From: Gammaproteobacteria bacterium
Lineage (GTDB): Bacteria > Pseudomonadota > Gammaproteobacteria > JAADGQ01
NCBI GenBank assembly: GCA_015490755.1
Contig: WFXF01000087.1
Span: 57,441-121,440, forward strand
Direction: 5' to 3'
DNA: 64,000 nt
In this document: in pieces, positions 3,521 to 43,223 of the stretch
How positions within the stretch are numbered: the stretch's first letter is position 1
Layout: the number at the start of each line of letters is the position of its first letter
The notes under the pieces: model-generated
What the model was told of the DNA's origin: nothing
Database searches by the model: none
Seen by the model: the letters and a program-made list of their open reading frames with translations, nothing else
Made by a program: the position numbers and the translations under genes

Positions 3521-5290
3521 TTAAAACGGCCACACCAAAGGTGCAATCAATACGGTTATAATTCCGACCACTATTGTTAAAGGAATACCAATTTTTAGAA
3601 AGTCCTTAAACTGGTATCCACCAGGTCCAAGCACCATTAAATTTGTTTGATAACCAATAGGTGTTGCAAAGCTCGCCGATGCTGCCACCATAATGGCGAT
3701 TAAAAAAGGGATATAATTGACATCAAGATTTTGCGCCGTTTGCAATGCAATTGGAAACATCAATACAGCCGCTGCATTATTTGTGATCATCGCCGTAAAT
3801 ATTGCGGTGATAAAAAATATCATGCCTAACGCAACCCAGGGATTACCTGCTGCAAAAGAGATGAGAAGCTGAGCCATTTGCTCTGCGGCTCCACTAACTT
3901 GCATCGCTTGTCCAATACCAAATGAAGCTGCAATAACGATTAAAACCATCCAGTCAACATTACGCCTGGCGCTTGATGCAGATACACAACGCGTCGCTAC
4001 CATCAAACCCGCTGCTAACATTGAAGCTTCCAGCATACTCAAAATATTAAATGTTGCAAAAACTACCATACCGGCAAGAATAGCTAAAGCAGCCACAGCT
4101 TTTTCATGGCGTGGTGGAGTTGAGTTTTCTATTTTACTGACCAGAAAAAAATCTTTTGAATTTTTTTCCTGCTCAGCAAATGAGTGATGACACTCTAGCA
4201 ACAAAGTATCACCCGGACGCAATACAATATCACCAATTTTTTCATTAATGTGCTCACCATTACGAGCAACAGCAATCACTGCTGCGTTGTACATTGTACG
4301 AAATCGACCACCACGAATACTTTTTCCAACCAGAGGACTGCTGTCTGAAACAACTGCTTCAACCAGCGACCGGTCAGTACGCGCTGAATTCAGTTTAAAT
4401 ACCTGATCTGTTGCCGGTGTTAGCCCCCGAACCCTATGCAGATCGACAACAGACTCCACAACTCCGGTAAAAATCAATCGATCATTCTCTTTTAGGCGTT
4501 CAAAAGAAGAAACGGCAGGCATAATGCAACCATCCCGATCAATCTCCATTAAATACATGCCAGGCAAATTACGTAAACCCGCATCACTAATGCTTTTTCC
4601 GGCAAGTGGACTGCTTTCTTCCACTAACATTTCAACAATATAGGAACGAGAGTTTGCTAATTGAGCAATGGCTGATTGACGCTGTGGCAATAACCACCGA
4701 CTAAATAACAAAACAAACAGCATTACGGCAATCACCACAGGCACACCCACCCATGCAATTTCAAACATCCCCAAACTGACATGATCTGTCTCTGAAATAA
4801 GTAAACCATTTACGACCAGATTTGTACTTGTACCGATCAATGTACAAGTTCCACCTGCAATGGCCGCATAACTCAAAGGGATCATGAGCTTGGATACGGC
4901 AATCTGGTGTTTTTTTGCCCACTCACTGACCACAGGAATTAACATGGCAACAACGGGGGTGTTATTCATGAATGCACTCATCGTGGCAACTGGTGCCATC
5001 AATCGGCTTTGTGCATATCGAAGTGATTTTGGCTGACCTAAAAGAGTGGGAATCAATGAATTTATCGCACCTGTTTCACGCACCCCGGCAGCAACAACAT
5101 ACAACATGCCAATCGTAACCATACCTTCATTTGAAAGACCAATAAGCGCTGTTTCTGGTGTCAATACACCACTTAATAAAAGAAGTGTTAACCCTCCGAC
5201 CAACACCATGTCCGGGGCCAATCGTGTCAAACTCAGGATCCCAAAACAGAGCGCAACAACACTTAACGTGAACCAGGCTTCCCATATCAT
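3521..5290 (-). CDS. SLC13/DASS-type anion permease with two central TrkA-C (RCK_C) domains
   Basis: 589 aa with N- and C-terminal polytopic halves ('GGTCTLIGTSTNLVV', 'TPIGYQTNLMV'). These flank two soluble repeats of the 'SPLAGKSI...' TrkA-C type. Confidence 0.8.
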   Translation of the reverse strand: MIWEAWFTLSVVALCFGILSLTRLAPDMVLVGGLTLLLLSGVLTPETALIGLSNEGMVTIGMLYVVAAGVRETGAINSLIPTLLGQPKSLRYAQSRLMAPVATMSAFMNNTPVVAMLIPVVSEWAKKHQIAVSKLMIPLSYAAIAGGTCTLIGTSTNLVVNGLLISETDHVSLGMFEIAWVGVPVVIAVMLFVLLFSRWLLPQRQSAIAQLANSRSYIVEMLVEESSPLAGKSISDAGLRNLPGMYLMEIDRDGCIMPAVSSFERLKENDRLIFTGVVESVVDLHRVRGLTPATDQVFKLNSARTDRSLVEAVVSDSSPLVGKSIRGGRFRTMYNAAVIAVARNGEHINEKIGDIVLRPGDTLLLECHHSFAEQEKNSKDFFLVSKIENSTPPRHEKAVAALAILAGMVVFATFNILSMLEASMLAAGLMVATRCVSASSARRNVDWMVLIVIAASFGIGQAMQVSGAAEQMAQLLISFAAGNPWVALGMIFFITAIFTAMITNNAAAVLMFPIALQTAQNLDVNYIPFLIAIMVAASASFATPIGYQTNLMVLGPGGYQFKDFLKIGIPLTIVVGIITVLIAPLVWPF

Positions 5291-6246
5291 TGTTGAATAT
5301 AGGCTCGTTTAAATTGTTGCAGGAATTCATTCAGCATACTTTCAGGAAGATTATTAATGCCCGCAGCTGCTTTTCGCCCCCCACCTGTCGGGAAACGGCG
5401 ACATAACAAGTCAGCTCCATCTTTATTTGAAAAAGGTGCCCTGACACTTACAAGATAACCACCATCACTTCGCTGTGTGAGCAGTGCATGAGCTCTATTT
5501 GGATTTTCACTTGCAAGTTTATTGGCATAAACCCCACTGACACGTCGTGCCCAAGCTTCATCAGGAAAGAGCAAAACAGCATGCGCCTCATCGACTTGCA
5601 TCATTTTGATATTTTCAGCTTTCTGCATATCCTGGCGATAACCATCACATAAGCTCTCAAAAACATTCGCCTCTTTTTCAATAAACTCAAAAGGCGATTC
5701 GTAGGGTCGAATCAAATTAAACAGCGCGACAGGCGTAAAATGCAGGTCATCCAGTGAAGCACCATAAGCATTATAGTTCATACATTCACCTAATTGACAA
5801 AGCAATGTTTTCTGTTCGTAATTAAGTGATTCTCCAATCTGTCCTGCCGCTATAGATAGATTATCGCCATAAGCACCCACAACGGCCCAGTCAGAAAACT
5901 TTCCATTTAAATATTGATTAACCAATACACTGGTACAAACATCCGAAGATGAATTAATTATCGCATTGAAATAGTCATTTTCAGGAATTTCACCTGCAAA
6001 ATGGTGATCAAAGTATTGGATATTCACACCTGTACTTAATAATCTTAACAACCCTTCTCTGTTTTTATCCAGTGAGATATCCAGTACAGTTACAAAATCA
6101 CCCGAACCTGCATCGACACGATTCAGTAATGCAATATCTCTTTTTACTCCTGTTACAAGCTGACTCGCCTGTGGGGTTTCCAATCTGAGCTGCTGCAGAG
6201 CACAAATACCATCCGCATCACCATTAAATACATCGTAGTACTTCAT
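5287..6246 (-). CDS. DHH-family phosphoesterase-like protein
   Basis: N-terminal 'FNGDADGICA' (DHH motif I/II-like) and 'YFDHHF' (DHH motif III). The stop overlaps the start of the downstream permease by 4 bp. Confidence 0.55.
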   Translation of the reverse strand: MKYYDVFNGDADGICALQQLRLETPQASQLVTGVKRDIALLNRVDAGSGDFVTVLDISLDKNREGLLRLLSTGVNIQYFDHHFAGEIPENDYFNAIINSSSDVCTSVLVNQYLNGKFSDWAVVGAYGDNLSIAAGQIGESLNYEQKTLLCQLGECMNYNAYGASLDDLHFTPVALFNLIRPYESPFEFIEKEANVFESLCDGYRQDMQKAENIKMMQVDEAHAVLLFPDEAWARRVSGVYANKLASENPNRAHALLTQRSDGGYLVSVRAPFSNKDGADLLCRRFPTGGGRKAAAGINNLPESMLNEFLQQFKRAYIQQ

Positions 6247-6311
6247 AAATGTTTTTAATCCTTTTGTTTTTTATGAAAGTCTTGAAATCAAGAATAAATA
6301 ATTACATTAAA

Positions 6312-6340
6312 TTGATCAACCGCCCCAAATTTACTATATA
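6312..6340 (+). promoter_or_regulatory. candidate sigma70 promoter for the 6375 membrane-protein gene
   Basis: TTGATC (6312-6317), a 17-bp spacer, then TATATA (6335-6340, overlapping TATAAT), about 35 bp upstream of the ATG. The match lies in AT-rich DNA, so it could be chance. Confidence 0.3.
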
Positions 6341-6374
6341 ATTCCGTCTCTTTTGTAAGTGCAGTTCTTTAATT

Positions 6375-7745
6375 ATGTCAAGCGAAAACCCGCTCGGGAT
6401 TTATCATTGGACGGCAACGGATTGGCGTCATTTTTTAATTTTATCTTCAATATTATTGCTTTATCCCTTAATGAATGGTTATCCATTTTTATTTCCAGAT
6501 GCATGGACCTATGCCGCTGGAAACTGTGTTAGTGAGTATCGCTCCCCTGTACTTGGTTGCGCAATGAAACCTGCCGTTTTAATTGGCGGGGTATGGGGCT
6601 ATATCAGCATTCAAGTTGCTGTTGCCGCATATATTTTAATTCTTTTTTCAAAACAAATGCTCGGTTCAGCAAACCTTCATGTACTCATTCCTGTAATGAT
6701 TATTTCAAGCCTAGGTCTCTTTACTGGCTGGTTAATGGCAGACGTGTGGTTACTATTTGCACTGCTTGCTCTTTTTATTATGCTTACAGCACAACGATCT
6801 GTATACCTGTTACTGCTTTTCACCTTTTCCATTTCCGTACACTTAGGCAACTTTCCTGTTATTATGATAACGATTATTTTATATATCATTGTCGTTAAAA
6901 CTAATATTCGGGCAATTATCACCAGCTTCATTTGTATAGCTGCTGCAGTATCACTAGTGGTTACTACAAACTTACTTAATCAGGAGTTTCATTTTTCATC
7001 TAAATGGACCTACACTTTTTTATCATCCCGAATAATTCATGATATGCCAGAAGTCCTTGAAAGCAGGTGTAAGCAGGACCCAGGCTTTGAACTTTGTGAG
7101 ATGAAAAGTACAATTTACAGAATCTCAAGATCACGCCCTGATCAACTTATATGGCACGAAGAAGCCCCCAGGAATATTAAAGCAATAGGCCCACTCAAAT
7201 ATGAAGCTTTATCCAGGGATCTCATACTTTCAAGTATTTTTCCATTTTTTAATGAACATATAAGTACCGCATTAAATAATATGTCCAAACAATTTGTTAA
7301 TTTCCATTATACTGAAGATTTTGCCGCCCATGGAGATGAAACATGGAGCGTTCAAGGTATGTTGCAATACTATCCCGAAGACTTTTCTACTTATAAAAGA
7401 TCATGGCAAGCAACAAATACGTTAACTAATATTTATGATGGGTTAGAGGAGTATATTCTATTTTTCTATCTTCTTTCCGTTTTAATATGCTTAGGATATG
7501 GAGTTGCGAAATGGAAACATCGCAATAACAAACTCTTGGTCAAGCTTTCTATTTTCACTGTAATTGTACTTTTGGTGAATGCTATGGTCATGTCAAATCT
7601 GGCTGGTTCATATGGTCGTTATCTCACACGCATCAGTTTCCTGCCATTCTTTACAGCAATATTGATTATTTTACAATGCAATATGATCGTAAATTATGCT
7701 AATTTTTTAAGGAATAGAATCAAAATATTAGTATTAGAAAAATAG
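6375..7745 (+). CDS. polytopic membrane protein, possible GT-C-type glycosyltransferase
   Basis: 456 aa. About 7 N-terminal TM helices carry an early loop with acidic and aromatic residues ('FLFPDAWTY'). A soluble segment of roughly 150 aa follows, then 2-3 C-terminal TM helices. No family was recognised with certainty. The call rests mainly on context beside GtrA and UbiA-type genes. Confidence 0.4.
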   Translation: MSSENPLGIYHWTATDWRHFLILSSILLLYPLMNGYPFLFPDAWTYAAGNCVSEYRSPVLGCAMKPAVLIGGVWGYISIQVAVAAYILILFSKQMLGSANLHVLIPVMIISSLGLFTGWLMADVWLLFALLALFIMLTAQRSVYLLLLFTFSISVHLGNFPVIMITIILYIIVVKTNIRAIITSFICIAAAVSLVVTTNLLNQEFHFSSKWTYTFLSSRIIHDMPEVLESRCKQDPGFELCEMKSTIYRISRSRPDQLIWHEEAPRNIKAIGPLKYEALSRDLILSSIFPFFNEHISTALNNMSKQFVNFHYTEDFAAHGDETWSVQGMLQYYPEDFSTYKRSWQATNTLTNIYDGLEEYILFFYLLSVLICLGYGVAKWKHRNNKLLVKLSIFTVIVLLVNAMVMSNLAGSYGRYLTRISFLPFFTAILIILQCNMIVNYANFLRNRIKILVLEK

Positions 7746-7747
7746 AA

Positions 7748-8122
7748 CTATTTTTTTCGAAATGTGTAATACCTGTTTGCTGTAAAATTCAACAATACGA
7801 CAATACCCATAGCCCAAAATTGAGCCCAAAAATAATAGATCATCCAGTATGTGATGAACCACCAAAAAATGAACATATTCACACCCAACATAATGAGTGT
7901 CACCATAAAATATCTACGAAAAAAGAAACCATGAGGAGAGCCTTTCATAGAAAAGGCCCAATGGTATTGCAGATTGTAGTTTACAAAAGTTGCACCGCAA
8001 AAACCGATCGCACTTGCAATAACTTTATTTACAGAAAATAGTTCGACCAGAAAGATCAAAACAAAAAGGTGTACGATACTCGCAATTGAACCTGAGATAA
8101 TATATTTAAAAAATGTTCCCAA
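7748..8122 (-). CDS. GtrA-family membrane protein (polyprenyl-phosphate-sugar flippase family)
   Basis: 124 aa with 4 TM helices, N-terminal 'KYIISGSIASIVHL' and C-terminal 'NFTANRYYTFRK', both typical of GtrA-like proteins. Confidence 0.75.
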   Translation of the reverse strand: MGTFFKYIISGSIASIVHLFVLIFLVELFSVNKVIASAIGFCGATFVNYNLQYHWAFSMKGSPHGFFFRRYFMVTLIMLGVNMFIFWWFITYWMIYYFWAQFWAMGIVVLLNFTANRYYTFRKK

Positions 8123-8124
8123 AA

Positions 8125-9048
8125 TTAGAACTCTTGTTTTTCAACAAATATTTCGAGCCAGGGTAAATCAACAACAAACAGTCCAGCAACCACAATACAA
8201 AGAAATATCAGATAAGCTATAAAACCTGTTTCTCGATATAGTTTCTCTGGATTCTGTGTGGGTGAATGAGGCTTCATGCCAATAGCCAAATACCAGACAA
8301 ACAGCAGTGCAAATAGTGGAAAACTCAGTAAAAACTCTATTCGATATTTCACAAGAAATATCCCCAAAAAAAAGGAAGATGACAACGCATAAAACAGTGC
8401 TGATAATAGTAGTCTCTGTTCGTTGTAATACTTAAATGAACGCCGATAAAGTGCCGCTTTTTTGGGATCATCAATAAAACGATATTCAGCATAACGTTTT
8501 ACAGCCATCAAAAAAGCCCCACCCATCCAGTAGGTTAAAATAATGCTTGAAGGTGGTAATACAACATAAGTGGTTACTGCAGACCATCCCAGTAATAGAC
8601 GTATAGGGTTATTGATGGATTCCGAAATCACATCAAGATAGACGCGATCTTTTGTGCGAAATGGCCGGACATTATAGAGAATACCCATCACCAGCAAAAA
8701 AATTGAAAGTGCCAAAAAAAGCGATGACAATAGAAATGCTAGCCCCAAGCCTGCTATAACCAGAAAAGCATATTCAAGGTAAACATACTTAGCTTCTATT
8801 TTACCTGAAGCAGAAGGCCGCACCTGTTTGACTGGGTGATGTCGATCAAACTCTGCATCCAGCCACTCATTAATAACATAGTTGGCAGAAGCAATAAGAG
8901 ATGTACTCAAAAGTGCAATAGATGCATTCCAAAGTGCATTACCGAGTACTGGATCCGTCATTAATATGCCCAGACCAACACCTGGAAGCATAAATATATT
9001 TTTAAACCAGTGATCTATGCGCGCAATACGCACATAATCTTTAAGCAT
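8125..9048 (-). CDS. UbiA-family prenyl-phosphate phosphoribosyltransferase (decaprenyl-phosphate 5-phosphoribosyltransferase-like)
   Basis: 307 aa, polytopic. 'ANYVINEWLDAEFDRHHPVKQVRPSASG' matches the N(D/E)xxDxxxD...HPxKxxRPxAxG motif of the Rv3806c-type DPPR synthase subfamily. Confidence 0.75.
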   Translation of the reverse strand: MLKDYVRIARIDHWFKNIFMLPGVGLGILMTDPVLGNALWNASIALLSTSLIASANYVINEWLDAEFDRHHPVKQVRPSASGKIEAKYVYLEYAFLVIAGLGLAFLLSSLFLALSIFLLVMGILYNVRPFRTKDRVYLDVISESINNPIRLLLGWSAVTTYVVLPPSSIILTYWMGGAFLMAVKRYAEYRFIDDPKKAALYRRSFKYYNEQRLLLSALFYALSSSFFLGIFLVKYRIEFLLSFPLFALLFVWYLAIGMKPHSPTQNPEKLYRETGFIAYLIFLCIVVAGLFVVDLPWLEIFVEKQEF

Positions 9049-9051
9049 TAT

Positions 9052-12000
9052 TTAAAAAGCCTGCTGGCTTTGGGGGTAGTGTTCCAAGGCAGAAAAAAAG
9101 CGTTTTTCCAACTGTTTATTAGATTTATACTCCACAAAACCTGTCGAATACCAACTATTTTCAATTTCTTCCAGTGTAGTTTTATTGTCCTTTTTCTCAC
9201 TGCTTTTCATCTCATCAGCCATAATAGCGACTTGGTACTGCATTCGTGCCTGCTTCGCTTCATCAGGTGATTCAACTCCAGCCAAAATTTCCAAACGCAA
9301 ACACAACTCCTCTTTAACCAGCTTATTTGATTGATTATAAGCATTAATTTCAGCAGCAATATCCTCACCATTCTGGTACATTTCAAGGTAGGACATCGTG
9401 TTTTTATAACGCTTCACAATAGCAGTATTAATAGGCGAACTCTGGCTTTCAGTTTCATTCCATTGCCTGTCAATAACTAATATTTTATCAAGTAAATCTG
9501 CCTTTTCGATATTGGTACTCACAACTTCACCCAATAGCTCTTCAAGGTCATTGCATATTTTATGTTTTAATTTTAATTGCTTTTTCTGCTCTTGATACTG
9601 TTTGTTAATATGATTTTTATAGTTTGTTTCAAATTTCTGACATACATCCTCAAAACGTTGAATTGATATCTTAAGATTATTTTTGGGGATATCTCCTATC
9701 TGTTTCCACTTTCCTTTCAGCTCTTTGAATTTCTCGTAGTTTGTTTTGATAGATTCAACATTAGAGTTTACTAACGACTCTATTTCATCACATAAAACTT
9801 CTTTTGCCGTTAAATTATTGAGCTGTTCTTGGTTAATTTCACTATTTTTTGCATCACGACGAGCAAAAAGATCATCACAAATAACTCGTAATTTCTTCCA
9901 CAGCTCTCGATCATCCAGTGCATGCCCTACACATTTCCACTCTGATTGAATTATTTTGATTTTTGAAATAGCTTGTTGAATATCAAGTTTTTCCTCATTC
10001 AGCTCTGCCAAAATCTCTTCAGATTGTTTAATCAACTCTAATTTTTTATTTTTATTTTCCAGTCGATTAGCTTTTGCAGTATTGCGCAACTGATTCATGA
10101 CCTTACGGAAACGACCATTAATCACTTTAAGATATTTACGATCAACAAAGCCCGTTTCACGCCACTCTTTTTGCGCTGTTCGTATGATTTTTTCTGCGGC
10201 AATCCAATCAACATCACCTTGCTCAATCTGGACAGCTTGTAGATCAGCATATTTCTCCAGCCCGTCACAAATGGCCTCTTTCTGTCTTAAGTTTTGTTGG
10301 CGTTGTTGTGATTGAATATCAAAATAATTTTTGCAAGGTTCATAAGCACGACTACAAGCATCATTAAAACGCTCCCAGATTTTTTTATCATCACTTGCTC
10401 CTGTTGTTTTCCACTCATCACGGGCAGCCCTTACTAAACGGGCCACTTCGCCTAAGTCATAATCCGAATTTCCCTGATTTCTTTCAACTTCATCAGCAAG
10501 CTGTTCCATCTCTTGGCAAAGACGCTCTTTAACAGGGTGGCTCGACCAATCATGCCAAGACTGAAGCTCATTCAGCTTCACCACATACTTTTGAAAATGG
10601 TGTGTTTTCTTTTGATTAACAAGTGACTTTAAATTCCGCTCTGGTAATTTTGCCAGTTTTTTCCGTCCCTGATTAACTAAAGCAGCAGCATGACGCACCT
10701 CACCCTTATTCAGTGCCACTCCTATCTCATCTACCAATAACTCAAATGCATGAGCATTCTCTTTATACCTAATTTCTTGTTGTTTAAATTTTTCACGAAG
10801 CTCCAACAAACCTTTTGTTACTGACTCTACAAGTGAATTTTCCAGCTTAAAACCCAGTGGCCTTTTCAGGTCATTCCACCGCCTCTCCAAGCCTTCAATT
10901 TTACGAGAATTTAGATGCTGACTACTATTTTCAATTGATATTTTTTCAAGTAAATCCAGCGCCTTATTTTTTGCCTGTATGTAAAGACCAATTTCTTTCG
11001 AATAAATATTTAATTTTTCACAAGCTTGCTCAAAGCGCAAACTGTAGAGCGCAGTATCTTCTGGCACATTGCTTTGTAGCTCTTTCCATTTTATTTTGGT
11101 TGTATCCAAATACTGCTCAATAAGCTTTAAATCATCAAAATCCGGGGACGAATGTTCAGAGTAGTTTGAAACCATAGCTTCCAAAGTTTCGCACAGCTCA
11201 ATAATCACTGCCCGCATAGGTGCATGCTTAGCTTCATACGCAAGCCTTTCAGACTCTTTTTGGCGTTGGGCAAGAAGTTCCCTGGAGTATTCATTACACA
11301 GCTCTGTGAACCTGTCATCTAACTGTTCATTCCATACCCCATAGTTTCCATCATTCCACTCTGCCTCCAATTTATGCCATGTTGAAAGCAGGGCTTCATA
11401 ACGATAATTTGTTTGCTCCCATTGCCGATTGCTTTTATTAGCACGAATTAACAATGAAAGATCTTTTGCACACTGCTTTGCTTCAGACTTAAGACGCTCG
11501 GGTCGCTCTGCTTCTGCAACTAATACAGCAACACGCTCTTTAGCAATCGTACTTATTTTTTTATCTATTGTACGGCTTTTTTTAGCGACTCTAGCCAAGG
11601 TGGAGCGCTGCGTAATTCGTTCTAATGCAGCCATACGTATCGTAGAACTATTATCATTAATAGCTAGGTCGCCAAGAAATGCCTGACGTTCAATACGATC
11701 AAGTGCTGCTTTTTTTAATTCCAGATTATTATTTGACTTGGCAATATGCTCCAACAACTTTTCATCTGTTGTTTGCTGAACGATTTCGAGGCATTCATCC
11801 AGATCAATATTTGACCCCGTCAATAGTTGTTGAAGCCGTTGGCGAGCAATCAACTTTACTCGATCATCATTATCACTATCCACAATTTTTTGTACGATAC
11901 CAAGTGCGCATAATCTTCGAACAGCCAATATTCGCAATTCACTTTCAATATCATTTTGTACAATTTGAGAGTAAATAGCCTGAGACTCTTTTTTCCCTGG

Positions 12001-12084
12001 AATCAATTCAAGAATCGCTTGTTTACGTACCTCAACTTTTTTGTGCTTCCATTTCGGGGTTAAAAATCGGCTAAATATATTCAT
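9052..12084 (-). CDS. DUF349 repeat protein (1010 aa)
   Basis: All-helical, charged protein with repeated units of about 75 aa that contain 'W...W' and 'LW.RF...CD.FF'-type motifs (for example 'KIWERFNDACSRAYEPCKNYF', 'ELWKKLRVICDDLFARRD'). These are characteristic of DUF349. Confidence 0.75.
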   Translation of the reverse strand: MNIFSRFLTPKWKHKKVEVRKQAILELIPGKKESQAIYSQIVQNDIESELRILAVRRLCALGIVQKIVDSDNDDRVKLIARQRLQQLLTGSNIDLDECLEIVQQTTDEKLLEHIAKSNNNLELKKAALDRIERQAFLGDLAINDNSSTIRMAALERITQRSTLARVAKKSRTIDKKISTIAKERVAVLVAEAERPERLKSEAKQCAKDLSLLIRANKSNRQWEQTNYRYEALLSTWHKLEAEWNDGNYGVWNEQLDDRFTELCNEYSRELLAQRQKESERLAYEAKHAPMRAVIIELCETLEAMVSNYSEHSSPDFDDLKLIEQYLDTTKIKWKELQSNVPEDTALYSLRFEQACEKLNIYSKEIGLYIQAKNKALDLLEKISIENSSQHLNSRKIEGLERRWNDLKRPLGFKLENSLVESVTKGLLELREKFKQQEIRYKENAHAFELLVDEIGVALNKGEVRHAAALVNQGRKKLAKLPERNLKSLVNQKKTHHFQKYVVKLNELQSWHDWSSHPVKERLCQEMEQLADEVERNQGNSDYDLGEVARLVRAARDEWKTTGASDDKKIWERFNDACSRAYEPCKNYFDIQSQQRQQNLRQKEAICDGLEKYADLQAVQIEQGDVDWIAAEKIIRTAQKEWRETGFVDRKYLKVINGRFRKVMNQLRNTAKANRLENKNKKLELIKQSEEILAELNEEKLDIQQAISKIKIIQSEWKCVGHALDDRELWKKLRVICDDLFARRDAKNSEINQEQLNNLTAKEVLCDEIESLVNSNVESIKTNYEKFKELKGKWKQIGDIPKNNLKISIQRFEDVCQKFETNYKNHINKQYQEQKKQLKLKHKICNDLEELLGEVVSTNIEKADLLDKILVIDRQWNETESQSSPINTAIVKRYKNTMSYLEMYQNGEDIAAEINAYNQSNKLVKEELCLRLEILAGVESPDEAKQARMQYQVAIMADEMKSSEKKDNKTTLEEIENSWYSTGFVEYKSNKQLEKRFFSALEHYPQSQQAF

Positions 12085-12178
12085 ATATTAATGGTATCGC
12101 ATGTTTATAACGGTGATCTACTTTCTACCAGAATTCGGTAGAATTGCAATAGACTTAGTAAGGGAGTGGTCAAATAAC

Positions 12179-12562
12179 TCAGGAAGAACCATAAAAAATT
12201 ACAAATGCGATAGCATAGTCACCATCATCAGAAATACTGAGCTGTGAATTGCTAATTTTTTTATTCACCATCAGCTGCTTTGCCTGACCATAAAATTGTA
12301 GCAATGGTTTACCATATTGATCATGTGAAACACCGATATGAGATAAAGCAAGCCCATTTCTAAAGCCTGTACCAAATGCTTTTGCTGACGCTTCTTTAAC
12401 GGCAAAGCGTTTAGCTAAAAATCTTGCAGGCAGTATAGCTTGCTCCATATTTGAAAGCTCACAGGGTGTCAGCACACGTTGTGCAAACCTGTCACCAAAA
12501 CGCTTTAATATTTTTTCTATACGCGGAACATAGACAATATCTGTGCCTATTCCATAAATCAC
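12179..12562 (-). CDS. acpS: holo-[acyl-carrier-protein] synthase
   Basis: 127 aa with '[10 protein letters not shown]' at the N-terminus and '[14 protein letters not shown]'. It overlaps pdxJ by 4 bp, the conserved pdxJ-acpS arrangement. Confidence 0.9.
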
Positions 12563-13323
12563 AAGCCACGCGCCTGATACATCAACTGTTTCATCTCTTT
12601 AACCGCACGGGAAAGACCTACAAATAAAGCACGAGCAATAATTGCATGACCAATATTTAATTCAACAATACCTGACAATGCTGCAATTTTAGCAACATTA
12701 TGATAGTTCAAACCATGCCCTGCGTTAACTTGCAAGCCAATCTTTTTCCCGTGTTCAACCGCTTTAATAATACGCTCAAGCTCTTGGCGACGTACTTGCG
12801 GATTACTTGCATCGGCAAAGTGGCCGGTATGAATCTCAATCACAGGCGCACCTACATTAGCTGCTGCGTCAATTTGATCGAGATCTGCATCAATGAATAA
12901 CGAGACACGTACACCTGCTTCCTGCAGTCTGCTGCAAGCATCAGCGATACGTGATGTTTGTCCTGATACATCCAAACCACCTTCTGTAGTGAGCTCCTCG
13001 CGACTCTCGGGAACCAGGCAACAATCTTCAGGTTGAATATGCTCAGCAATGGCAAGCATCTCATCAGTTACCGCCATTTCAAGGTTCATACGTGTCTGCA
13101 AGATTTCTTTAAAAATTTCTACATCACGCTCCTGGATATGGCGACGATCTTCACGCAAGTGCAGAGTAATAACATCTGCCCCAGCTTGCTCTGACTCTAT
13201 CGCAGCCTGAACAGGGTCCGGATATCGAGTCCCCCGGGCTTCACGAAGTGTTGCAACATGATCAATATTAACACCCAACAAAATAGGCAATACTACATTC
13301 ACACAAAATTCCCCGCTATTCAA
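12559..13323 (-). CDS. pdxJ: pyridoxine 5'-phosphate synthase
   Basis: '[16 protein letters not shown]', '[12 protein letters not shown]' and 'EIHTG' motifs. The true start is probably the GTG at 13302, preceded by GGGGAA, rather than the TTG at 13323. Confidence 0.9.
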
Positions 13324-14066
13324 TCAATGAGCGTATCAATCACATCAATCATAAACTCAATCTCTTCCTGCTCAATCTTTTCCCAACATTTAAAGCCAAG
13401 GTCTTGTAATACACCCCCTCCTTTCGAATGGTCCGGCATTGATAGTAACGCATCCTGAATCTCTTCAGCTTTGTGAGCCAAATTCGGCCCTACAAGCAAT
13501 GAATGGTGCAATACTCCAATCTTGCTTCGCATCAACACCCGTAATTTCTTCTGTGTTAACCCAGAAAAGCTATCAAAAACATCCTCTAGAAAGAAACCGA
13601 CATCAGCACTATCTTGTAACAAAGATTTAGCAACAGCTGTATAACTTTTATATTGGCATAACCGAATATTATCAGAGTTCAGATTTGCAGGCTCCAGCAA
13701 AGTCATGCAGATCATGTGGATATCCTGTTCATAAGTTGAAGCAAGTTTAGTTTCCGCTGATAGGTTTTCTATTGTTTGAATATCACTATCGGCAGTCGTT
13801 ACCATTACTGCTTCAACAAATTTCTGACTTGGCACTGCAATCACTTTAAAACCCAGCTGCCGTACTAATTTAGAGACATAACAGGGATTAATATAAATCA
13901 GATCTACTGTATTGTGAAGCAAAGCCTTATGCTGAGCTGTAAAATCGTTATATAGCTCTAGATGAATATTTTCTCCAAGTTTTTTTTGCAGCCACGTATT
14001 AAAAACAAACCAACTTGGCAAATAGCCCGCATTAATATCCGGACTGATAGTAAAAGTGTAAGACAT
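13320..14066 (-). CDS. PhnD-like (phosphonate/phosphate binding-protein fold) protein without a signal peptide
   Basis: '[47 protein letters not shown]' resembles type-2 periplasmic-binding-fold PhnD-like proteins, but there is no hydrophobic leader. The likely start is the ATG at 14066, preceded by GGGAGG. The ORF track extends to 14093. Confidence 0.5.
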
Positions 14067-14678: not shown

Positions 14679-15059
14679 CTAAAGTAATTTAGTAATATTC
14701 TCAGCAGCTCTTTTCACATCAAGAAAAATCAGGCCTAACCTGGCATTTGGTTTGGCGAGTACAGATAAAACTGCATCTTCCCCCGAATGAGTCATCAAAA
14801 CATAGCCTTGATTACCTTTTATCATGACTTGCTCCAGACTACCACGTGCCAGCTCTTGAGCGGTACGATCACCTAAAGAGAGCATTGCCGCTGACATTGC
14901 TCCAACCCGATCTTCATCCATGCCACTCGGTAATAATGCAGCAATCATTAAACCATCGGTAGAGATGACAGCTGAGGCCTCAATATCGGCAGAAGTTCCA
15001 TTTAAATCGCTGAGAATTGATGAAATCATTTCTTCACGCATTATTTTTATACTCCTCAA
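14679..15059 (-). CDS. roadblock/LC7 (MglB-like) domain protein
   Basis: About 120 aa. 'IEASAVISTDGLMIAALLPSGMDEDRVGAMSAAMLSLGDRTAQEL...GYVLM' is the canonical roadblock/LC7 pattern. Confidence 0.8.
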   Translation of the reverse strand: MRSIKIMREEMISSILSDLNGTSADIEASAVISTDGLMIAALLPSGMDEDRVGAMSAAMLSLGDRTAQELARGSLEQVMIKGNQGYVLMTHSGEDAVLSVLAKPNARLGLIFLDVKRAAENITKLL

Positions 15060-15080
15060 ACCATTCCTGTGTTGTAAAAA

Positions 15081-15731
15081 TTATTCTGAACCTACTTGTG
15101 CATAGCGTCGCCCCAGCAACCAAACTAAATCAACAAAAGAAGATTGATTTAAATTGGGCAAACCAGATAAAACTAACACAAAGCGACTTGAGCCAATATA
15201 AATAGGCCAAAACCCTAACTGACTATTGCCTGCGGCATCAACCAAACCCCACGCAGACATTGTAATACTTAGATTATTTTTCAATAACCCATTGTGGCGT
15301 TCATGTAATTTGGCTAAATCGGCACTGAGCGCTGAGACTTCTTCAGCAGCTTCATGAGGGAAACCATGTGTTGCAAGATAAAAACCTTCACTATCAGCGA
15401 GCAGTGCTTTGCCATTTATGGTGAGTGCCTCTAATAATTGAGGCACCTCTTCTTCGAGGGTACCGGAAGGAGCGTCCCTGGAGACCACACTACCTTGAAT
15501 CCAACCCAGATTTTGCATTCGATAAATAAGGTCCAATACATCATCTCCACTTTCATCAAATCCCCATGAGCGTAATTTATCCAAAGCAAAAGGCTGGGTG
15601 TTTCTTTGAATTAGCAGGTGAAATAATAACTTGCGCGCTACATCATCTGTCTGACTGGAAACAGCATAATATGCGCCGGCTGGAGTGGGCGTAATAAATC
15701 GATTGTCTACTATTTGGTAGCTTGACATCAT
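15081..15731 (-). CDS. hypothetical protein; C-terminal half resembles a divergent roadblock/longin-type domain
   Basis: 216 aa. 'LLEALTINGKALLADSEGFYLATHGFPHEAAEEVSALSADLAKL' mirrors the roadblock pattern of the neighbouring gene. The N-terminal region ('VLDLIYRMQNLGWIQ') could be a winged helix. The start overlaps the GTPase stop by 4 bp. Confidence 0.4.
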   Translation of the reverse strand: MMSSYQIVDNRFITPTPAGAYYAVSSQTDDVARKLLFHLLIQRNTQPFALDKLRSWGFDESGDDVLDLIYRMQNLGWIQGSVVSRDAPSGTLEEEVPQLLEALTINGKALLADSEGFYLATHGFPHEAAEEVSALSADLAKLHERHNGLLKNNLSITMSAWGLVDAAGNSQLGFWPIYIGSSRFVLVLSGLPNLNQSSFVDLVWLLGRRYAQVGSE

Positions 15732-16264
15732 CCACCCAATCCAGGATCAAGTGAATAAAGCAGCGCCTGCACCATGATTGAAACATCATCGCGTTGACGT
15801 GCATCAACAGAAAATACGGGCACTTTTAAATTTATTTTTTGCAATTGGGTATGATAATCGTCAATACGTGGATGTGATGCCAAATCCATCCTTGTCACAC
15901 CAATGACGACTTTTGTCCGGTCAATAAAATCTTTAAATGAACTCATAAAGAAATGCAAGTCCTGAAAAGGGTCGGTGCGTGTATTATCGAGCAACATAAC
16001 CAAGCCTAAACCGCCTTCACTGAGAATGTCCCACATAAAGTTGAATCGCTCTTGACCGGGCGTACCATAAAGGTGAATACGTTCATCACCGTCAAGCTTC
16101 ATCACTCCATAGTCCATCGCAACTGTTGTAGTTGGCTTCAAATCTTTTGTCATATCGCTGGCCTGCTCATCCGTCGTAACAGGAGGAACATCACTCAATG
16201 CTGCAATTGCTGTACTTTTACCCGCACCTACTGGGCCCGTGAATATAATCTTATAATTGCTCAT
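15728..16264 (-). CDS. small Ras-superfamily GTPase of the MglA/CvnD (COG2229-like) type
   Basis: 178 aa. G1 is 'GPVGAGKST', the G2 region is 'TTVAMDYG' and G3 is 'YGTPGQERF'. G4 is atypical ('GVTRMD' rather than NKxD). G5-like is 'SVDA'. Confidence 0.8.
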   Translation of the reverse strand: MSNYKIIFTGPVGAGKSTAIAALSDVPPVTTDEQASDMTKDLKPTTTVAMDYGVMKLDGDERIHLYGTPGQERFNFMWDILSEGGLGLVMLLDNTRTDPFQDLHFFMSSFKDFIDRTKVVIGVTRMDLASHPRIDDYHTQLQKINLKVPVFSVDARQRDDVSIMVQALLYSLDPGLGG

Positions 16265-16328: not shown

Positions 16329-17498
16329 TCAAGCCGACCTTTTAATGTGACTCAAAATTCGCTTGAATAAACCACGGTGTTGATGCTTTTTAACAGGAAC
16401 AGGTTTTGACATCTTGCCTTCTACAGGACGCACAGCAGTATCTAGCAAACCAATAGCATGAGCAGCTGTATAAAAAGAAAAAACATGCTGAACAGGGACT
16501 TTAAGAACTTTTGCGACCAATAAAGGCGGATGTGGCATATCATTCCATAAGGATGCTATGCGCAAGGCATCCGGCATCATCATTAAACGTGTAAAGTTTG
16601 GCCATTGTTTTAAAGATGTGGGAGCTTTTACCTGAGTGCCTATTGGTACCCGACCATTTGATGTCCAGATCGCAATTTTCCATATAAAAGACTCCAGAGA
16701 TTGCTTTCGGGAACCTGCATCTATATCATCTGACTTTATGTGTGTAAATGGGCGAATATTGACAGCCTTGTCCAATTTAACAGAACACAAAGATTTAAGC
16801 TCATCATCTGTCATACAAGTAACAACTTCTGAACTTTGCGGCAACAAGGTAATGGGTTTAACCCCCCCCGCCAATTGATCTTCAATTCTGACTGGCTTGT
16901 TACTGGAGACTGCTCGACTACGTGCTTGAAGCAAATACCCTAAAAGCAGGTCAGAAGCATCAAAATAAGCTGATTTACCTCTGTTATTTCCAAAAAACTC
17001 ATCATCTTTGGTGATATTATTTCTTTCAACGGTTTCCAGTATTTTTGTTGCTGCACGTGTCCCCGTTGTTTTTTTTGCTGCTCTTACTTCTTTTCTGGCT
17101 TTTATTTCAGGTAAAGCTGGTGGGGTCACACTGGCACTTTCAGGAGAGGTTTGAGTACGAAGAGACTCGGTTTTGCTACCCTTCAGGCTGGCAAGCGCAT
17201 CTAGCAATTTATCAATACGCATTGGTTTCTGTACAAAAACAAACTCGGAGTCACCTTGTTGTTTTAGTTCTGGGCACTTTATCGCAATCAGGATGGTAGG
17301 TAATGATGGGTGACGTTCCCGATATTTTATTAATAACTCTTCAGCCCCCAAACTGTCCATATTGATAATTGCAGCCTCAGCCAAAGCTTCTTCAACCAAC
17401 TCATACTGACCATTCCCTGGACCTGAAAAGACCATTCGAAGCATTTCACGCGAACGCTGATCAACGCCAAATGCAACTATTTTAATCGGTGAAGTCAA
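16329..17498 (-). CDS. receiver-like domain protein with a Pro/Ser/Lys-rich linker and an uncharacterised C-terminal domain
   Basis: The N-terminal ~120 aa fit a CheY-like pattern: 'KIVAFGVDQ', 'AAIINMDSLG' (candidate acceptor Asp) and 'FVQKPM' (KP motif). A low-complexity stretch follows ('TQTSPESASVTPPALPEIKARKEVRAAKK'), then an unrecognised domain of about 200 aa. Confidence 0.45.
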   Translation of the reverse strand: MTSPIKIVAFGVDQRSREMLRMVFSGPGNGQYELVEEALAEAAIINMDSLGAEELLIKYRERHPSLPTILIAIKCPELKQQGDSEFVFVQKPMRIDKLLDALASLKGSKTESLRTQTSPESASVTPPALPEIKARKEVRAAKKTTGTRAATKILETVERNNITKDDEFFGNNRGKSAYFDASDLLLGYLLQARSRAVSSNKPVRIEDQLAGGVKPITLLPQSSEVVTCMTDDELKSLCSVKLDKAVNIRPFTHIKSDDIDAGSRKQSLESFIWKIAIWTSNGRVPIGTQVKAPTSLKQWPNFTRLMMMPDALRIASLWNDMPHPPLLVAKVLKVPVQHVFSFYTAAHAIGLLDTAVRPVEGKMSKPVPVKKHQHRGLFKRILSHIKRSA

Positions 17499-18226
17499 TT
17501 TAACACCCCACTTTCCTCAAAAGATACGCTCAAACTTTTCCATTCGTCAATTGCTGCTAATGGTCTACGACCAATTTTAACAAACATTTCGTTAAATGCA
17601 TCTTTGTTCTGTGTATGCTTGTAAATTTCCAACAGCTCTACATTAAGAGCCTCATTACCACGGTCAAGTAACAAGCTTGACTCCAGAAGCTTCCTCCCTT
17701 CATCAATCATTCCGGAATCGACAAGATCCCGAGCTTCGTCCAGTGGCGATCTAATTTCCATATCATCTATTGAGCACTTATACACAAGAGGGCTTGCTCC
17801 TACAAAGCTACCACTTAACATAGAATAAGGTGTATACGGCAATAACTCATCAGAAGTTATACCCCGCTCCAATACACCTAAAAGTCGAGCATAACGTGTC
17901 CGCCCAATAGCCTTGGCGACCATTTTTAACATTCGCTGTCGTATTGCAAAGCCCTTATTCCCCAGCACAATAAACAGATCCAGTAACGCTCCGTAAACTG
18001 CATCCGCATTTCGAAATCTTGAGTAAACAATGATTCGTTGAATATGGCTCTCCAGATCGGCAACCTGTCGAACAATTTTATGTGCCAGATAGTTTGAAAC
18101 TCGAACACCTAATGCTTTGTCACCATCAACGATGTCCAACTTTGAAAGGAAGGCCGGCTCGATTAATGCGCTATCCGCCATATCTCTAACAGGCGTCTCT
18201 TTTTGAATCAACAATACACTATCCAT
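17495..18226 (-). CDS. hypothetical protein (helical, TPR-like C-terminus)
   Basis: 243-aa ORF and first gene of the cluster. Its stop overlaps the next start by 4 bp. No family was recognised. Confidence 0.5.
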   Translation of the reverse strand: MDSVLLIQKETPVRDMADSALIEPAFLSKLDIVDGDKALGVRVSNYLAHKIVRQVADLESHIQRIIVYSRFRNADAVYGALLDLFIVLGNKGFAIRQRMLKMVAKAIGRTRYARLLGVLERGITSDELLPYTPYSMLSGSFVGASPLVYKCSIDDMEIRSPLDEARDLVDSGMIDEGRKLLESSLLLDRGNEALNVELLEIYKHTQNKDAFNEMFVKIGRRPLAAIDEWKSLSVSFEESGVLN

Positions 18227-20739: not shown

Positions 20740-23700
20740 ATGTACGAATCATTCTATCGCTTAAGTACAAAACCATTTGGTTTAAACCCTGATCCCGACT
20801 TTATATTCACACGCCGCGGTCATGAATTAGCGATGGCACACTTACGCTACGGCATTAGCCAGAGTACCGGTTTTGTTGTTATTACAGGCGCACCAGGCAC
20901 GGGCAAAACAACACTTGCACGTGTTCTACTTAAAGAACTTGCCAACAATACCACTATTGTTGTTGCACACTTACCCAGCACACACCTTGCTGCTGATGAT
21001 CTATTACGTGTTGTCGCAGATTCATTTGGCCTTAAATACGAAGGGCTGTCCAAACCAGAAATCTTAAAGTTACTTAATAATTTTTTACTGACTTGTGTGC
21101 GTGAACGAAAACGTACACTGCTGGTTATAGATGAAGCGCAAAATTTACCCGCTTGTGCATTTGAAGAGTTACGTTTGCTCGCTAATCTAAGATTAGGTGC
21201 AAAAGCACTGTTGCAAACAATTCTTTTGGGGCAAGAGCAATTTCGCCAGATGCTAGGCTCTCAGGAATTCAGCCAGATTATGCAGCGTGTGGTTGCCAAC
21301 TATCATCTCGTACCTTTAACACTCGAAGAGACTCAAGCCTATATTGAAAGTCGCCTGATTCATGCAAACTGGCAAGGTAATCCACACTTTTCTGACGAAG
21401 CAATTTACTGCATACACGAACATACTGAAGGTATTCCACGCCGCATCAATAAATTTTGCGAACGGCTACTGCTGTATGGTTATCTTGAAGAACGAACGGA
21501 GATTTCACAAGACATTGTCCAGGTTGTCATTAACGAGTTCCAGCAAGAGACTCCCGTTTCACAACGCCGGCCTGAAGATATAGAGATAGACGAAATTGCT
21601 CAAACAGAACCGCTTTCTGTTCCGTATGAAATAGAAAATGAGATCGCTGAAGCGACACAAACCAATAGTTCAGATGAACATAAAGAGATTGAAGGTTCAT
21701 TGATTGATTTTTCAATCAATTCTGAAAATAGTAATGCAGAAACTATCTCATCCACACAGGAAAAAATCGAAAGCACTCCACCTGTTACTGAAAAAATTAA
21801 CCAAAATAGAGGCTCACACTCATTAGAATCACCACCACTCATTGAAACCAGTAATGATGTTGATAAACTAAAAGAAAAAAAAGAACCTGCTGAAAATATA
21901 CATTCTGTTTCAGAAATATTTTCTCTTATACCTCAAGAGCAGGAAAAAACAGAGGATAAAAATGAATCTGCTCCTCAGGAACTTTCTGCAGAAGAGACTC
22001 AAAACACAGACAAATCCGAACAAAAACAAGAGCGGATTATTGAGGCAGAACAAGAAGCTTTGGCTGCTATAGAAGCTGAAAACTCAAACCTGAAAAGTGA
22101 TATTGGAGAACTAGAAGAGAGTACAGCGATCGCAATGGCTCACTCCTCGCAATTGTCCTCCAATGTAAGTGAGGTGCCTGCGGCTAATAGAACAAAATTT
22201 CGTGTTATTGATGGCGGCAAAGATAGTCGATCAACATCTCAACCCATAAACAGCAATCTGCAACAATCCTCCACCAACAAAGATATTGAACACAAACTTC
22301 TGAAACTTGTTCTTGCTTTTCAACTTTCCCCCAAACATTTCGAATACCTGACAGACCCGGAACAACCTTCTCCAGAAAATGCAGGACGATTATTAGAACT
22401 TGCAACAACTGATAACACTACAATTGCAACAGCGCTTCCCCAATCACTGCGGGGAATCTCTCAGCAAAATTTACAAACAGCAATCAACTTCTATATATGG
22501 GAAGTGATACTAAAACCTGGTGGCAATGATTACAGAACTCTTGGCTTGCAAGAAAATGCCCCCATCAGTGAAATAAAGACCCATTACCAAAATTTGAGGT
22601 TATTTCTAAACAATCAAAAAGCAGACCATGAAAACGGGATTGAATATATATCACGCATAGAAAAAGCATATACAAATCTAACAAATGAAGCTGAAATTGA
22701 AAATAATTTTCTAGAACTACCAACAACGCCTGGGCCAAAGCAAAAAAGTCGGGCTGAAATTGATCGCATTGAAGAGGCTTATGAAATTCTTAGTGAAGAA
22801 ACAATAGACTCCACAGAGATACTCGAACCACCATTCAAAAAATCGGGTTCTAATGGCCAATCAACTACATATACAAAGTATTTAATTTTTGGGCTCATTG
22901 CTACAGCAATTGGAGTCACTGTTTACAAGACACAATTTACCACCAATGAAAGTGAGCACCTCACTACTGAAATAGAACCTACAAATAAACAACCAGAAAA
23001 AGCAGTTATTTTTGGTGCAAAAAATAATAGTTCAGAAGTCATTGATGAACCCATTATCAATAATACAGATATATACCAGCATGACCCAAATACAGATATA
23101 GCATCGACAGAAAGTACTGTAGAAACAGAGTCTGATAATTTCACATTACTTGATGGCGACGACCCTTGGGCTGAATATTCAGAGATTTCAGAAAAAATAG
23201 CTCAAGCTCCAAGTGAGCCCCCCCCCTCTGAAGATTCCTTTATTGTTGAGCAGCCAATAATTACGCCTGAGCCTGTCGCATCAACCTTGCAAAAAGAGAT
23301 CACAACGACTCCCGAGGTAATACAGACCTCAAAACCAGACATAGTTGAAAATCAACCAATAGCTGTTGCAACACCAAAAGCTCTACCTATAGCAACGCTC
23401 TATTCAGACAGAGTTACGACAAAGGCCGTAACACCAGCACCTGATAATAATATCGAAAAACTGGATCTGATTAACTTAATCAATAATTTTACAACGGCCT
23501 ATGAGCAGGGTGATATTAATCAATTCATGAAGCTGTTTTCAATTGATGCGACAAGTTTTGATGGTACAACTCAAACCGACCGCAATGGTATTGAAGCTGA
23601 CTATATTGATCTTTTTCAAACAACTACCGCAAGACAAATTGCTATCAAAAATATTGCATGGAATACTAACCACAACACATCCGAAGGTATCAGTGACTTT

Positions 23701-43094: not shown

Positions 43095-43223
43095 ACAATA
43101 TCTCTTTACGATGTCACTCTAATAATTCTGTTCATCATACCTAAATTCCAAAAATTATTTAAAATAATCAGTATAATCCAATAATCCAAATGATTGATCG
43201 AAGTACGGAAGTTTCACTCTACA

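Follow-up and report, generated by a model that had tools for sequence, protein, structure and literature searches.

The decaprenylphosphoryl arabinose (DPA) pathway of mycobacteria combines the decaprenyl-phosphate 5-phosphoribosyl synthase (DPPRS) Rv3806c, the phosphatase Rv3807c, the DprE1/DprE2 pair, the GtrA-like protein Rv3789 and C-type glycosyltransferases (GT-Cs) of the Emb and Aft groups. In Citrobacter youngae O1, a polyprenyl-phosphate 5-phosphoribosyltransferase (PPPRS), a flippase and a GT-C were demonstrated experimentally to add α-ribofuranose (α-Ribf) without an epimerase (Kelly et al., PNAS 2024, PMC11127046). There, ORF15 joins a PPPRS to a HAD phosphatase, ORF14 is the flippase and ORF12 the GT-C that founded family GT136, whereas in C. 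youngae O2 a GalE-like short-chain dehydrogenase/reductase (SDR) epimerase, ORF13, turns the donor into xylofuranose (Xylf); arabinofuranose (Araf) systems, in turn, are accompanied by DprE1/E2 homologues (PMC11127046). The same authors list candidate systems whose product is unknown and whose GT-Cs are annotated as hypothetical proteins (PMC11127046). Here, we describe a three-gene cassette from an uncultured hydrothermal-vent gammaproteobacterium, contained in a 64-kb window—the whole sequence examined—of contig WFXF01000087.1. The cassette encodes a UbiA-fold PPPRS candidate, a GtrA-family protein and a divergent polytopic membrane protein, and probably serves to add a pentofuranose to an envelope glycoconjugate in the periplasm (post-assembly), with ribofuranose as the most likely sugar.

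A preliminary description of this DNA had considered such a modification poorly documented in gammaproteobacteria, a view that the C. youngae O1 experiments contradict (PMC11127046). The gene positions it gave agree with the list of open reading frames (ORFs) and with the sequence itself, and the elements of the locus are as follows.

8125–9048, minus strand: candidate polyprenyl-phosphate 5-phosphoribosyltransferase of the UbiA fold (ubiA), 307 amino acids; PF01040 member with DPPRS-type best matches

7748–8122, minus strand: small membrane protein of the GtrA family (gtrA), presumed flippase for a lipid-linked sugar, 124 amino acids; PF04138 member

6375–7745, plus strand: divergent GT-C-like polytopic protein, presumed periplasmic pentofuranosyltransferase, 456 amino acids; assigned from fold, profile and linkage

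6247–6374, no strand: AT-rich intergenic region, 128 bp; from reading of the sequence

6247–9051, no strand: the whole three-gene cassette, an indel with the related genome L088 as reference; from comparison with L088

The genes are tightly packed. The TAG stop codon of the GT-C-like gene has its last base at 7745; that of gtrA (CTA on the plus strand) begins at 7748, leaving 2 bp between the convergent stops, as the preliminary description had stated. At the other end, the ATG edge of ubiA at 9048 is separated by a 3-bp gap from the edge, at 9052, of a minus-strand ORF for a DUF349 protein.

As in C. youngae O1, a PRPP-type (5-phosphoribosyl-1-pyrophosphate) UbiA-fold PPPRS, a small flippase and a GT-C would be encoded together, without an epimerase and for a periplasmic reaction. 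The window PPPRS, however, lacks the HAD domain that is fused to the prototype; its presumed flippase is of the GtrA type (PF04138), whereas that of the prototype is ArnE/F-like (called MATE by its authors); and its presumed transferase comes from a family not represented in Pfam and lacks a C-terminal carbohydrate-binding module (CBM), since the 456-residue protein ends in a transmembrane helix with no beta-rich C-terminal domain. In addition, the cassette is located between housekeeping genes, outside an O-antigen locus. With the mycobacterial and the Pseudomonas aeruginosa PA7/Pa5196 pilin Araf (TfpW) systems the locus shares a stand-alone DPPRS-type enzyme, a GtrA-family protein and a GT-C, but no DprE1/DprE2 or Rv3807c-type gene is found within the 64 kb and in sequence the GT-C does not resemble Emb, Aft or TfpW enzymes. 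Phage and enterobacterial Gtr modules for O-antigen glucosylation (GtrA, GtrB and a serotype-specific Gtr*) likewise unite a lipid-phosphate-sugar synthase, GtrA and a polytopic periplasmic transferase in a compact accessory cassette; there, however, the synthase is a GT2 enzyme, GtrB, and not a PRPP-using UbiA-fold protein.

The UbiA-fold enzyme and its GtrA partner

The 307-residue protein matched PF01040 (UbiA) in Pfam with an E value of 3.5e-26 and contained no additional domain, that is, no fused HAD phosphatase. Its top NCBIfam models were those of the DPPR synthases NF008977, NF008978 and NF008976 (91.3, 70.6 and 64.2 bits), and the HAD–UbiA fusion model NF006088 gave 86 bits, while all other prenyltransferase models—for quinone, haem, chlorophyll and ether-lipid enzymes—scored 48 bits or less. 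The best match in the PDB was Mycobacterium tuberculosis Rv3806c (8j8j; E 3e-13), the next family being chlorophyll synthase (E 0.05). Moreover, the motif N60-E-W-L-D64-A-E-F-D68-R-H-H-P-V-K74-Q-V-R77-P-S-A-S-G was colinear, residue by residue, with the Rv3806c motif NDVRDVEADREHPTKRFRPIAAG. Together, the NCBIfam and PDB rankings and the aligned motif bear out the earlier assignment of this homologue to the DPPR-synthase type, as opposed to the quinone or haem type.

The substrate contacts of Rv3806c, taken from the literature (PMC10994848), were mapped onto the 307-residue protein through the PDB alignment. This revealed 11 of the 13 PRPP and lipid-phosphate contacts to be kept: R22, K28, Y70, N73, D77 and K87 of Rv3806c correspond to R10, K16, Y57, N60, D64 and K74, and R90, Y138, K143, K191 and K208 to R77, Y125, K133, K184 and R203. 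The NDxxDxxxD equivalents of Rv3806c N73, D77 and D81 are conserved as well. Y157, which varies among mycobacteria, is replaced by N147. In Rv3806c, K28 and Y70 hold the 5′-phosphate of PRPP, and the phosphoribose site is reported to be non-conserved in ordinary UbiA prenyltransferases (PMC10994848). Judged by homology, the 307-residue protein would be a PPPRS that uses PRPP.

Relatives of this protein are abundant. The subfamily comprises 6,502 database proteins at E ≤ 1e-10, the top 120 of which share 62–91% identity with the window protein, and GTDB representative genomes contain relatives, 53–69% identical to it, at more than 538 genomic loci. Their range takes in Gamma-, Alpha- and Betaproteobacteria, Desulfobacterota, Bacteroidota, Planctomycetota, Verrucomicrobiota and the candidate phyla radiation (CPR). 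By sequence comparison, the window protein is no NCBIfam DPPRS equivalog but belongs to a separate subfamily whose members are 53–91% identical to it.

Neighbouring genes were clustered and counted at those 61 loci of the genome scan that had 3 kb or more of sequence to either side of ubiA. A gene for a HAD phosphatase (PF13419 or PF12710) was adjacent in 36 of the 61 (59%), gtrA was found near ubiA in 18, usually directly downstream on the same strand, and in 45 the neighbours included a gene for a GT-C of the PMT_2 type or for an unassigned protein with at least eight transmembrane helices. Genes for an NAD-epimerase (PF01370) or a GMC oxidoreductase stood beside ubiA in 14 loci, and no DprE1/E2-like cluster recurred.

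Apart from these genes, one for an S-adenosylmethionine (SAM)-dependent methyltransferase (PF13489, ~296 amino acids) was directly beside ubiA in 18 of the 61 loci, often in the order HAD–methyltransferase–UbiA–GT-C (methyltransferase loci: L013, L023, L037, L038, L040, L049–L055, L058, L060, L061, L066, L070, L078 and L080). A methylated pentose or lipid-linked donor is one possibility for the substrate of this methyltransferase.

With respect to the second gene of the cassette, residues 6–121 of the 124-residue protein covered positions 1–117 of the 117 in PF04138 (GtrA_DPMS_TM), with an E value of 5e-19 and 69.1 bits against a cut-off of 26.1. This full-length match agrees with the GtrA-family protein that had been described at this position, 2 bp downstream of ubiA; proteins of this family measure ~120 amino acids and possess four transmembrane helices. 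The gtrA gene begins with a TTG codon 2 nt past the ubiA stop codon, and both this start and the ORF are conserved in the related locus L003, with 86% amino acid identity. As read from family membership, the flippase of the cassette would be of the Rv3789/GtrA type.

A polytopic protein with GT-C-like architecture

Members of the GT-C superfamily possess a polytopic domain of 7–13 transmembrane helices, and the acidic residue used in catalysis lies in their first extracytoplasmic loop. The 456-residue protein lacked any sequence match in Pfam, NCBIfam or the PDB, both as a single sequence and as a 64-sequence profile, and none of the 64 sampled family members had a relevant Pfam or NCBIfam match. 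Matches of its soluble domain to Arc capsid proteins (E 2e-3) were judged to be due to chance. Close homologues numbered eight among 5.8 billion proteins, while an exhaustive profile search returned 2,315 clusters at 50% identity (E ≤ 1e-3) for the family as a whole.

AlphaFold2 (AF2) models of the protein reached a pLDDT of 85.7 when built from 9 sequences, and of 94.2 with a pTM of 0.93 when built from 64. The predicted structure comprises ~10 transmembrane helices and a 147-residue helical domain (residues 202–348) past the seventh helix, in line with the polytopic protein with a soluble insert noted previously at 6375–7745. Lysine and arginine residues concentrate on the predicted cytoplasmic loops, as the positive-inside rule would have it. 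Within the soluble domain, C232 and C241 are each a cysteine in 50 of 64 sequences; this conservation suggests a disulfide and hence a periplasmic location of the domain. The charge distribution and the cysteine pair place both the loop formed by residues 35–58 and the domain 202–348 in the periplasm. An alignment of 64 diverse homologues shows no variation at D42, D123 and H156 and next to none at P37, Y46, W74, R415 and R419; on the predicted topology, D42, D123, H156, R415 and R419 are all located in periplasmic loops.

Structural and profile comparisons pointed in the same direction. In Foldseek searches, both AF2 models retrieved ArnT first, with a probability of 0.98, and the other non-trivial matches were ALG9, EmbC, STT3, DPY19, ALG12 and WaaL. 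An hhalign comparison of the family with PMT_2-type GT-Cs yielded a probability of 91.8% and an E value of 7e-7; the match extends over the N-terminal 190 columns, and in it D42 coincides with the loop-1 aspartate of the PMT_2-type enzymes. The latter flank homologous ubiA genes in Methylococcales, a representative having a Pfam PMT_2 match at E 2e-10. A second ubiA-adjacent PMT_2 group (A5) gave no match (probability 3.8%). The protein therefore resembles ArnT/PMT_2 enzymes (GT83/GT39-like) in its top structural match and in the profile alignment of its N-terminal ~190 residues, but differs from them in having no direct Pfam PMT_2 match, only ~10% identity, a TM-score of ~0.3 and a periplasmic domain that is helical with a conserved cysteine pair. 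At the level of remote homology, these comparisons point to a GT-C architecture for the 456-residue protein; with ArnT as the top match, the PMT_2 alignment and an invariant D42, the GT-C-like fold and acidic first loop anticipated in the preliminary description are both recovered.

Gene linkage adds to this picture. The 456-residue family adjoins the ubiA subfamily in four lineages, namely the window, L003/L004, L089 and L092–94, with identities to the window GT-C-like protein of 84% for L003/L004, 73% for L089 and 38% for L092–94 (the UbiA of L092–94 being 51% identical). At nine other loci (L002, L005, L006, L096, L097, L099, L102, L104 and L106), a gene of the 456-residue family lies 50–80 bp downstream of a GT2 gene encoding a protein of 384–389 amino acids (PF00535 + PF26629) with a C-terminal transmembrane domain. 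A GT2 domain followed by a C-terminal transmembrane domain is the architecture of polyprenyl-phosphate hexose synthases. Pairing with two unrelated classes of lipid-monophosphate-sugar synthases is what would be expected of a GT-C transferase, and the GT2 pairing suggests that the family is used with hexose-type lipid donors too. From the adjacency of synthase genes in at least 13 loci, we infer that the 456-residue protein would use a polyprenyl-phosphate-linked donor.

As a separate observation, a distant member of the 456-residue family (alignment A3) is a fusion in which the membrane protein bears a phosphoesterase-like module, a metallohydrolase domain of the PHP/CehA-McbA type (E 1.6e-5 and 1.1e-15).

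Proposed pathway and competing explanations

In the pathway that we propose, the UbiA-fold enzyme would, at the cytoplasmic face, use PRPP to load polyprenyl (undecaprenyl) phosphate with 5-phosphoribose, as its conserved active-site residues suggest. An unlinked phosphatase, for which the cassette has no gene, would strip off the 5-phosphate to yield polyprenyl-phosphate-Ribf. GtrA, going by its family, would take the lipid-linked sugar to the periplasmic leaflet, where the 456-residue GT-C-like protein would pass the pentofuranose to an acceptor; this last assignment draws on fold, profile, periplasmic residues and linkage. Asp42 in the first periplasmic loop may serve as the catalytic base, with Asp123, His156, Arg415 and Arg419 as further active-site candidates. 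If the GT-C is inverting, an α-Ribf side branch would result.

Genes for the remaining enzymes of such pathways were sought in the window by reading ORFs (≥80 amino acids between 1 and 16 kb, ≥150 between 16 and 40 kb and ≥180 between 40 and 64 kb) and with profiles of HAD, SDR, GMC and other families neighbouring ubiA. Neither approach revealed a DprE1/DprE2-like, GalE-like SDR or GMC gene anywhere in the 64 kb, nor was an Rv3807c-type phosphatase gene found there, and no GT2 gene of the GtrB type occurred in or beside the cassette. The only HAD genes of the window are gph (34268–34915) and one next to rluC (45222–45872), both generic. The preliminary description had noted the lack of epimerase genes near the module and of a phosphatase within it, and on both counts it holds.

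As no epimerase is encoded nearby, the donor should stay ribose. The earlier proposal of ribofuranose transfer gains support from the GT-C-like fold with its acidic loop, from the absence of adjacent epimerase genes and from the grouping of the UbiA homologue with DPPR synthases; the identity of the sugar, like that of the acceptor—lipopolysaccharide (LPS), capsule or protein—is something we infer.

Several observations weigh against ribofuranosylation by this cassette. The 307-residue protein scores far under the DPPRS equivalog cut-offs of 234, 207 and 474 bits, and Rv3806c Q135, which contacts the ribose O3, is replaced by G122. The Foldseek matches of the 456-residue protein to solved GT-Cs are weak (E 0.012–0.022, TM 0.30–0.39; none at E ≤ 0.001). 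The cassette encodes no HAD, PAP2 or other phosphatase, so that a gene for dephosphorylating the phosphoribose is missing from it. The search for epimerase and phosphatase genes spans 64 kb, and either may be encoded elsewhere in the genome. In the related locus L089 the cassette lacks gtrA, so GtrA is either dispensable or supplied in trans there. Finally, a search of sequencing runs retrieved the locus from DNA metagenome runs of vents only, and from no RNA run.

Among the alternatives, the same machinery could deliver another sugar if epimerases encoded elsewhere turned the donor into polyprenyl-phosphate-Araf (DprE1/E2) or -Xylf (GalE-like SDR) before flipping. This would fit with the 64 kb that were covered being only part of a contig of at least 161 kb, with the PF01370 or GMC genes adjacent to ubiA in 14 of the 61 loci, and with the ability of the GT-C ORF12 to take Ribf or Xylf donors (Kelly et al., PMC11127046). 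Yet the window contains zero epimerase genes, known Araf and Xylf epimerase genes cluster with the PPPRS gene (PMC11127046), and the cassette moves as a compact two- or three-gene indel without one, and we regard a different sugar as fairly unlikely. Alternatively, the donor might be polyprenyl-phosphate-ribose-5-phosphate, and the GT-C-like protein would install ribose-5-phosphate as an anionic modification. The cassette has, after all, no phosphatase gene, its DHH neighbour is not cassette-specific, and 25 of the 61 ubiA loci are likewise without an adjacent HAD gene. Ribose-5-phosphate transfer in the periplasm from a lipid carrier, however, has no known precedent, and the HAD gene beside ubiA in 59% of loci argues for a dephosphorylated donor as the normal state. 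Phosphatase-dead D18A ORF15 still yielded some farnesyl-phosphate-Ribf and side chains of Ribf; its phosphatase may therefore be replaceable by others of the cell, and two generic HAD genes do exist elsewhere in the window. We hold phosphoribose transfer to be quite unlikely; if true, it would amount to a lipid-carrier-dependent phosphoribosylation of the envelope, and the protein responsible would found a large GT-C-like family that is so far uncharacterised.

Other doubts concern the proteins themselves. The 456-residue protein might not be a transferase at all but a WaaL/Wzy-like ligase or polymerase, a transporter or a carrier recycler, with ubiA and gtrA providing the donor to a GT-C encoded elsewhere. 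Its Foldseek E values exceed 0.01, WaaL ranked second for the better model (probability 0.30), sequence matches in Pfam, NCBIfam and the PDB are lacking, and hhalign to PMT_2 group A5 came back empty. Against such a role stand the repeated direct adjacency to two unrelated classes of polyprenyl-monophosphate sugar synthases, the PMT_2 profile match that aligns the loop-1 aspartate, the invariant acidic residues and histidine on periplasmic loops, and the L089 cassette, which consists of ubiA and the 456-residue-family gene alone; we consider it unlikely. That the UbiA homologue is an ordinary prenyltransferase (for quinone, haem O, chlorophyll or ether lipids) in a coincidental neighbourhood appears highly improbable. 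It is a PF01040 member that falls under every NCBIfam equivalog cut-off, but DPPRS-type models are ahead by ~40 bits or more, the PDB comparison separates DPPRS from the next family by 3e-13 to 0.05, the phosphoribose-specific K28 and Y70 are conserved, and GtrA, HAD and GT-C partners recur in dozens of genomes.

The logic of PRPP-based pentofuranosylation is not new, having been published in 2024, and no concept would be overturned by its occurrence here; what differs is that the flippase is of the GtrA type, that a phosphatase is missing, that the GT-C comes from an uncharacterised family and that the genes lie outside any polysaccharide locus. If pentofuranosylation by the cassette is true, this periplasmic chemistry would extend to uncultured vent Gammaproteobacteria, and a function would be provided for two large unannotated groups, the ubiA subfamily and the GT-C-like superfamily (>2,300 clusters), whose members pair with lipid-sugar synthases of the PRPP or the NDP-sugar type and which would then probably become a CAZy GT family of its own. 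Annotators, too, would gain a rule by which cassettes for ribofuranose side chains could be recognised without the HAD marker relied on until now.

The cassette as an indel among housekeeping genes

In L088, a related vent or marine gammaproteobacterial metagenome-assembled genome (MAG), the gene order is pdxJ-acpS-DUF349-DHH-SLC13-tmcA, with zero cassette genes. Its positions 10001–13971 correspond to window positions 5287–12084, with identities of 70% for the DUF349 protein and 86.5% for the DHH protein. The DUF349 stop codon overlaps the DHH start codon as TAATG, and the spacer at 6247–6374 is absent. Since DUF349 and DHH are contiguous there without the cassette, both genes lie outside it, which sets its extent to 6247–9051. 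The comparison implies that an ancestral DUF349-DHH-SLC13-tmcA unit was probably transcribed as one and has been split by the cassette in the window.

The cassette occupies the identical site in L003/L004 and L089. In L089, whose DUF349 protein is 61% identical, DUF349-ubiA is followed by the convergent GT-C gene with 12 bp between the stops, and positions 6689–8206 correspond to 6375–9048 of the window. A repeat search across 6100–9200 revealed no flanking direct or inverted repeats above chance, that is, no mark of a mobile element, and a scan of viral contigs (IMG/VR) with the ubiA alignment found no relative and thus no evidence of phage carriage.

Comparison with the 83–84% identical locus L003 gave dN/dS ratios of 0.11 for the GT-C gene, 0.115 for gtrA and 0.05 for ubiA, next to 0.08 for the flanking DHH gene. 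The low ratios of all three cassette genes indicate purifying selection and, with it, functional genes. Their GC contents (0.360, 0.341 and 0.385 for the three genes) lie below the window gene mean of 0.420 (standard deviation 0.029), in keeping with the AT-richness that the preliminary description had noticed by eye. The GC content at third codon positions (GC3), in contrast, amounts to 0.315, 0.376 and 0.308 against a window mean of 0.353 (standard deviation 0.041) and remains within 1.1 standard deviations. The low GC is a product of hydrophobic amino acid composition; with an ordinary GC3 it is no sign of foreign DNA, and horizontal transfer inferred from low GC was rejected.

The spacer at 6247–6374 is the sole candidate promoter region for the GT-C gene on the plus strand and likewise for DHH-SLC13-tmcA on the minus strand, now that the DUF349-DHH unit is split. 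It contains one weak sigma-70-like match (6273–6302, plus strand). Scans for promoters and terminators over 5000–12700 returned counts not above those of shuffled sequence and hence do not inform on transcription units.

Both flanking genes were considered as partners of the cassette. The DHH/DHHA1 neighbour was rejected as a cassette-specific missing phosphatase because it occupies the same place in cassette-free L088. The DUF349 gene adjoins ubiA only in the window, L003/L004 and L089 and in 0 of 80 loci of the genome scan, and is present without the cassette in L088, for which reason it was rejected as a functional partner, too. The preliminary description had suggested, from the 3-bp spacing, that ubiA is co-transcribed with DUF349; judged by L088, DUF349 is only a neighbour. 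The DUF349 protein itself (9052–12084) measures 1010 amino acids, contains five repeats and has 8 relatives at E ≤ 1e-20; its gene always follows pdxJ-acpS in this lineage, and a metagenome scan with the protein returned no relatives.

The remainder of the window is of a housekeeping nature, including tmcA, acpS, pdxJ, smpB, amiC, ubiG, gph, rne, kdsB and lpxK as well as comEC, glmM, folP, ftsH and carB. At 14679–16264, an operon that L088 and L089 share encodes a Roadblock/LC7 protein, a 216-residue protein and an MglA-like small GTPase; it is followed at 16329–18226 by genes for two proteins of unknown function. A squalene/phytoene-synthase-like ORF (43194–44114; 306 amino acids) lies beside a gene for a large TPR lipoprotein (40689–43094). 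A hopanoid or carotenoid link is possible for this ORF and would fit a methanotroph-like or vent gammaproteobacterium. Lastly, the gene at 20740–23826 encodes a 1028-residue protein that begins with an ExeA-like AAA ATPase domain and continues into a long C-terminal region of low complexity, acidic and rich in Ser/Thr; its counterpart in L088 is a 956-residue AAA_16/AAA_22 protein.

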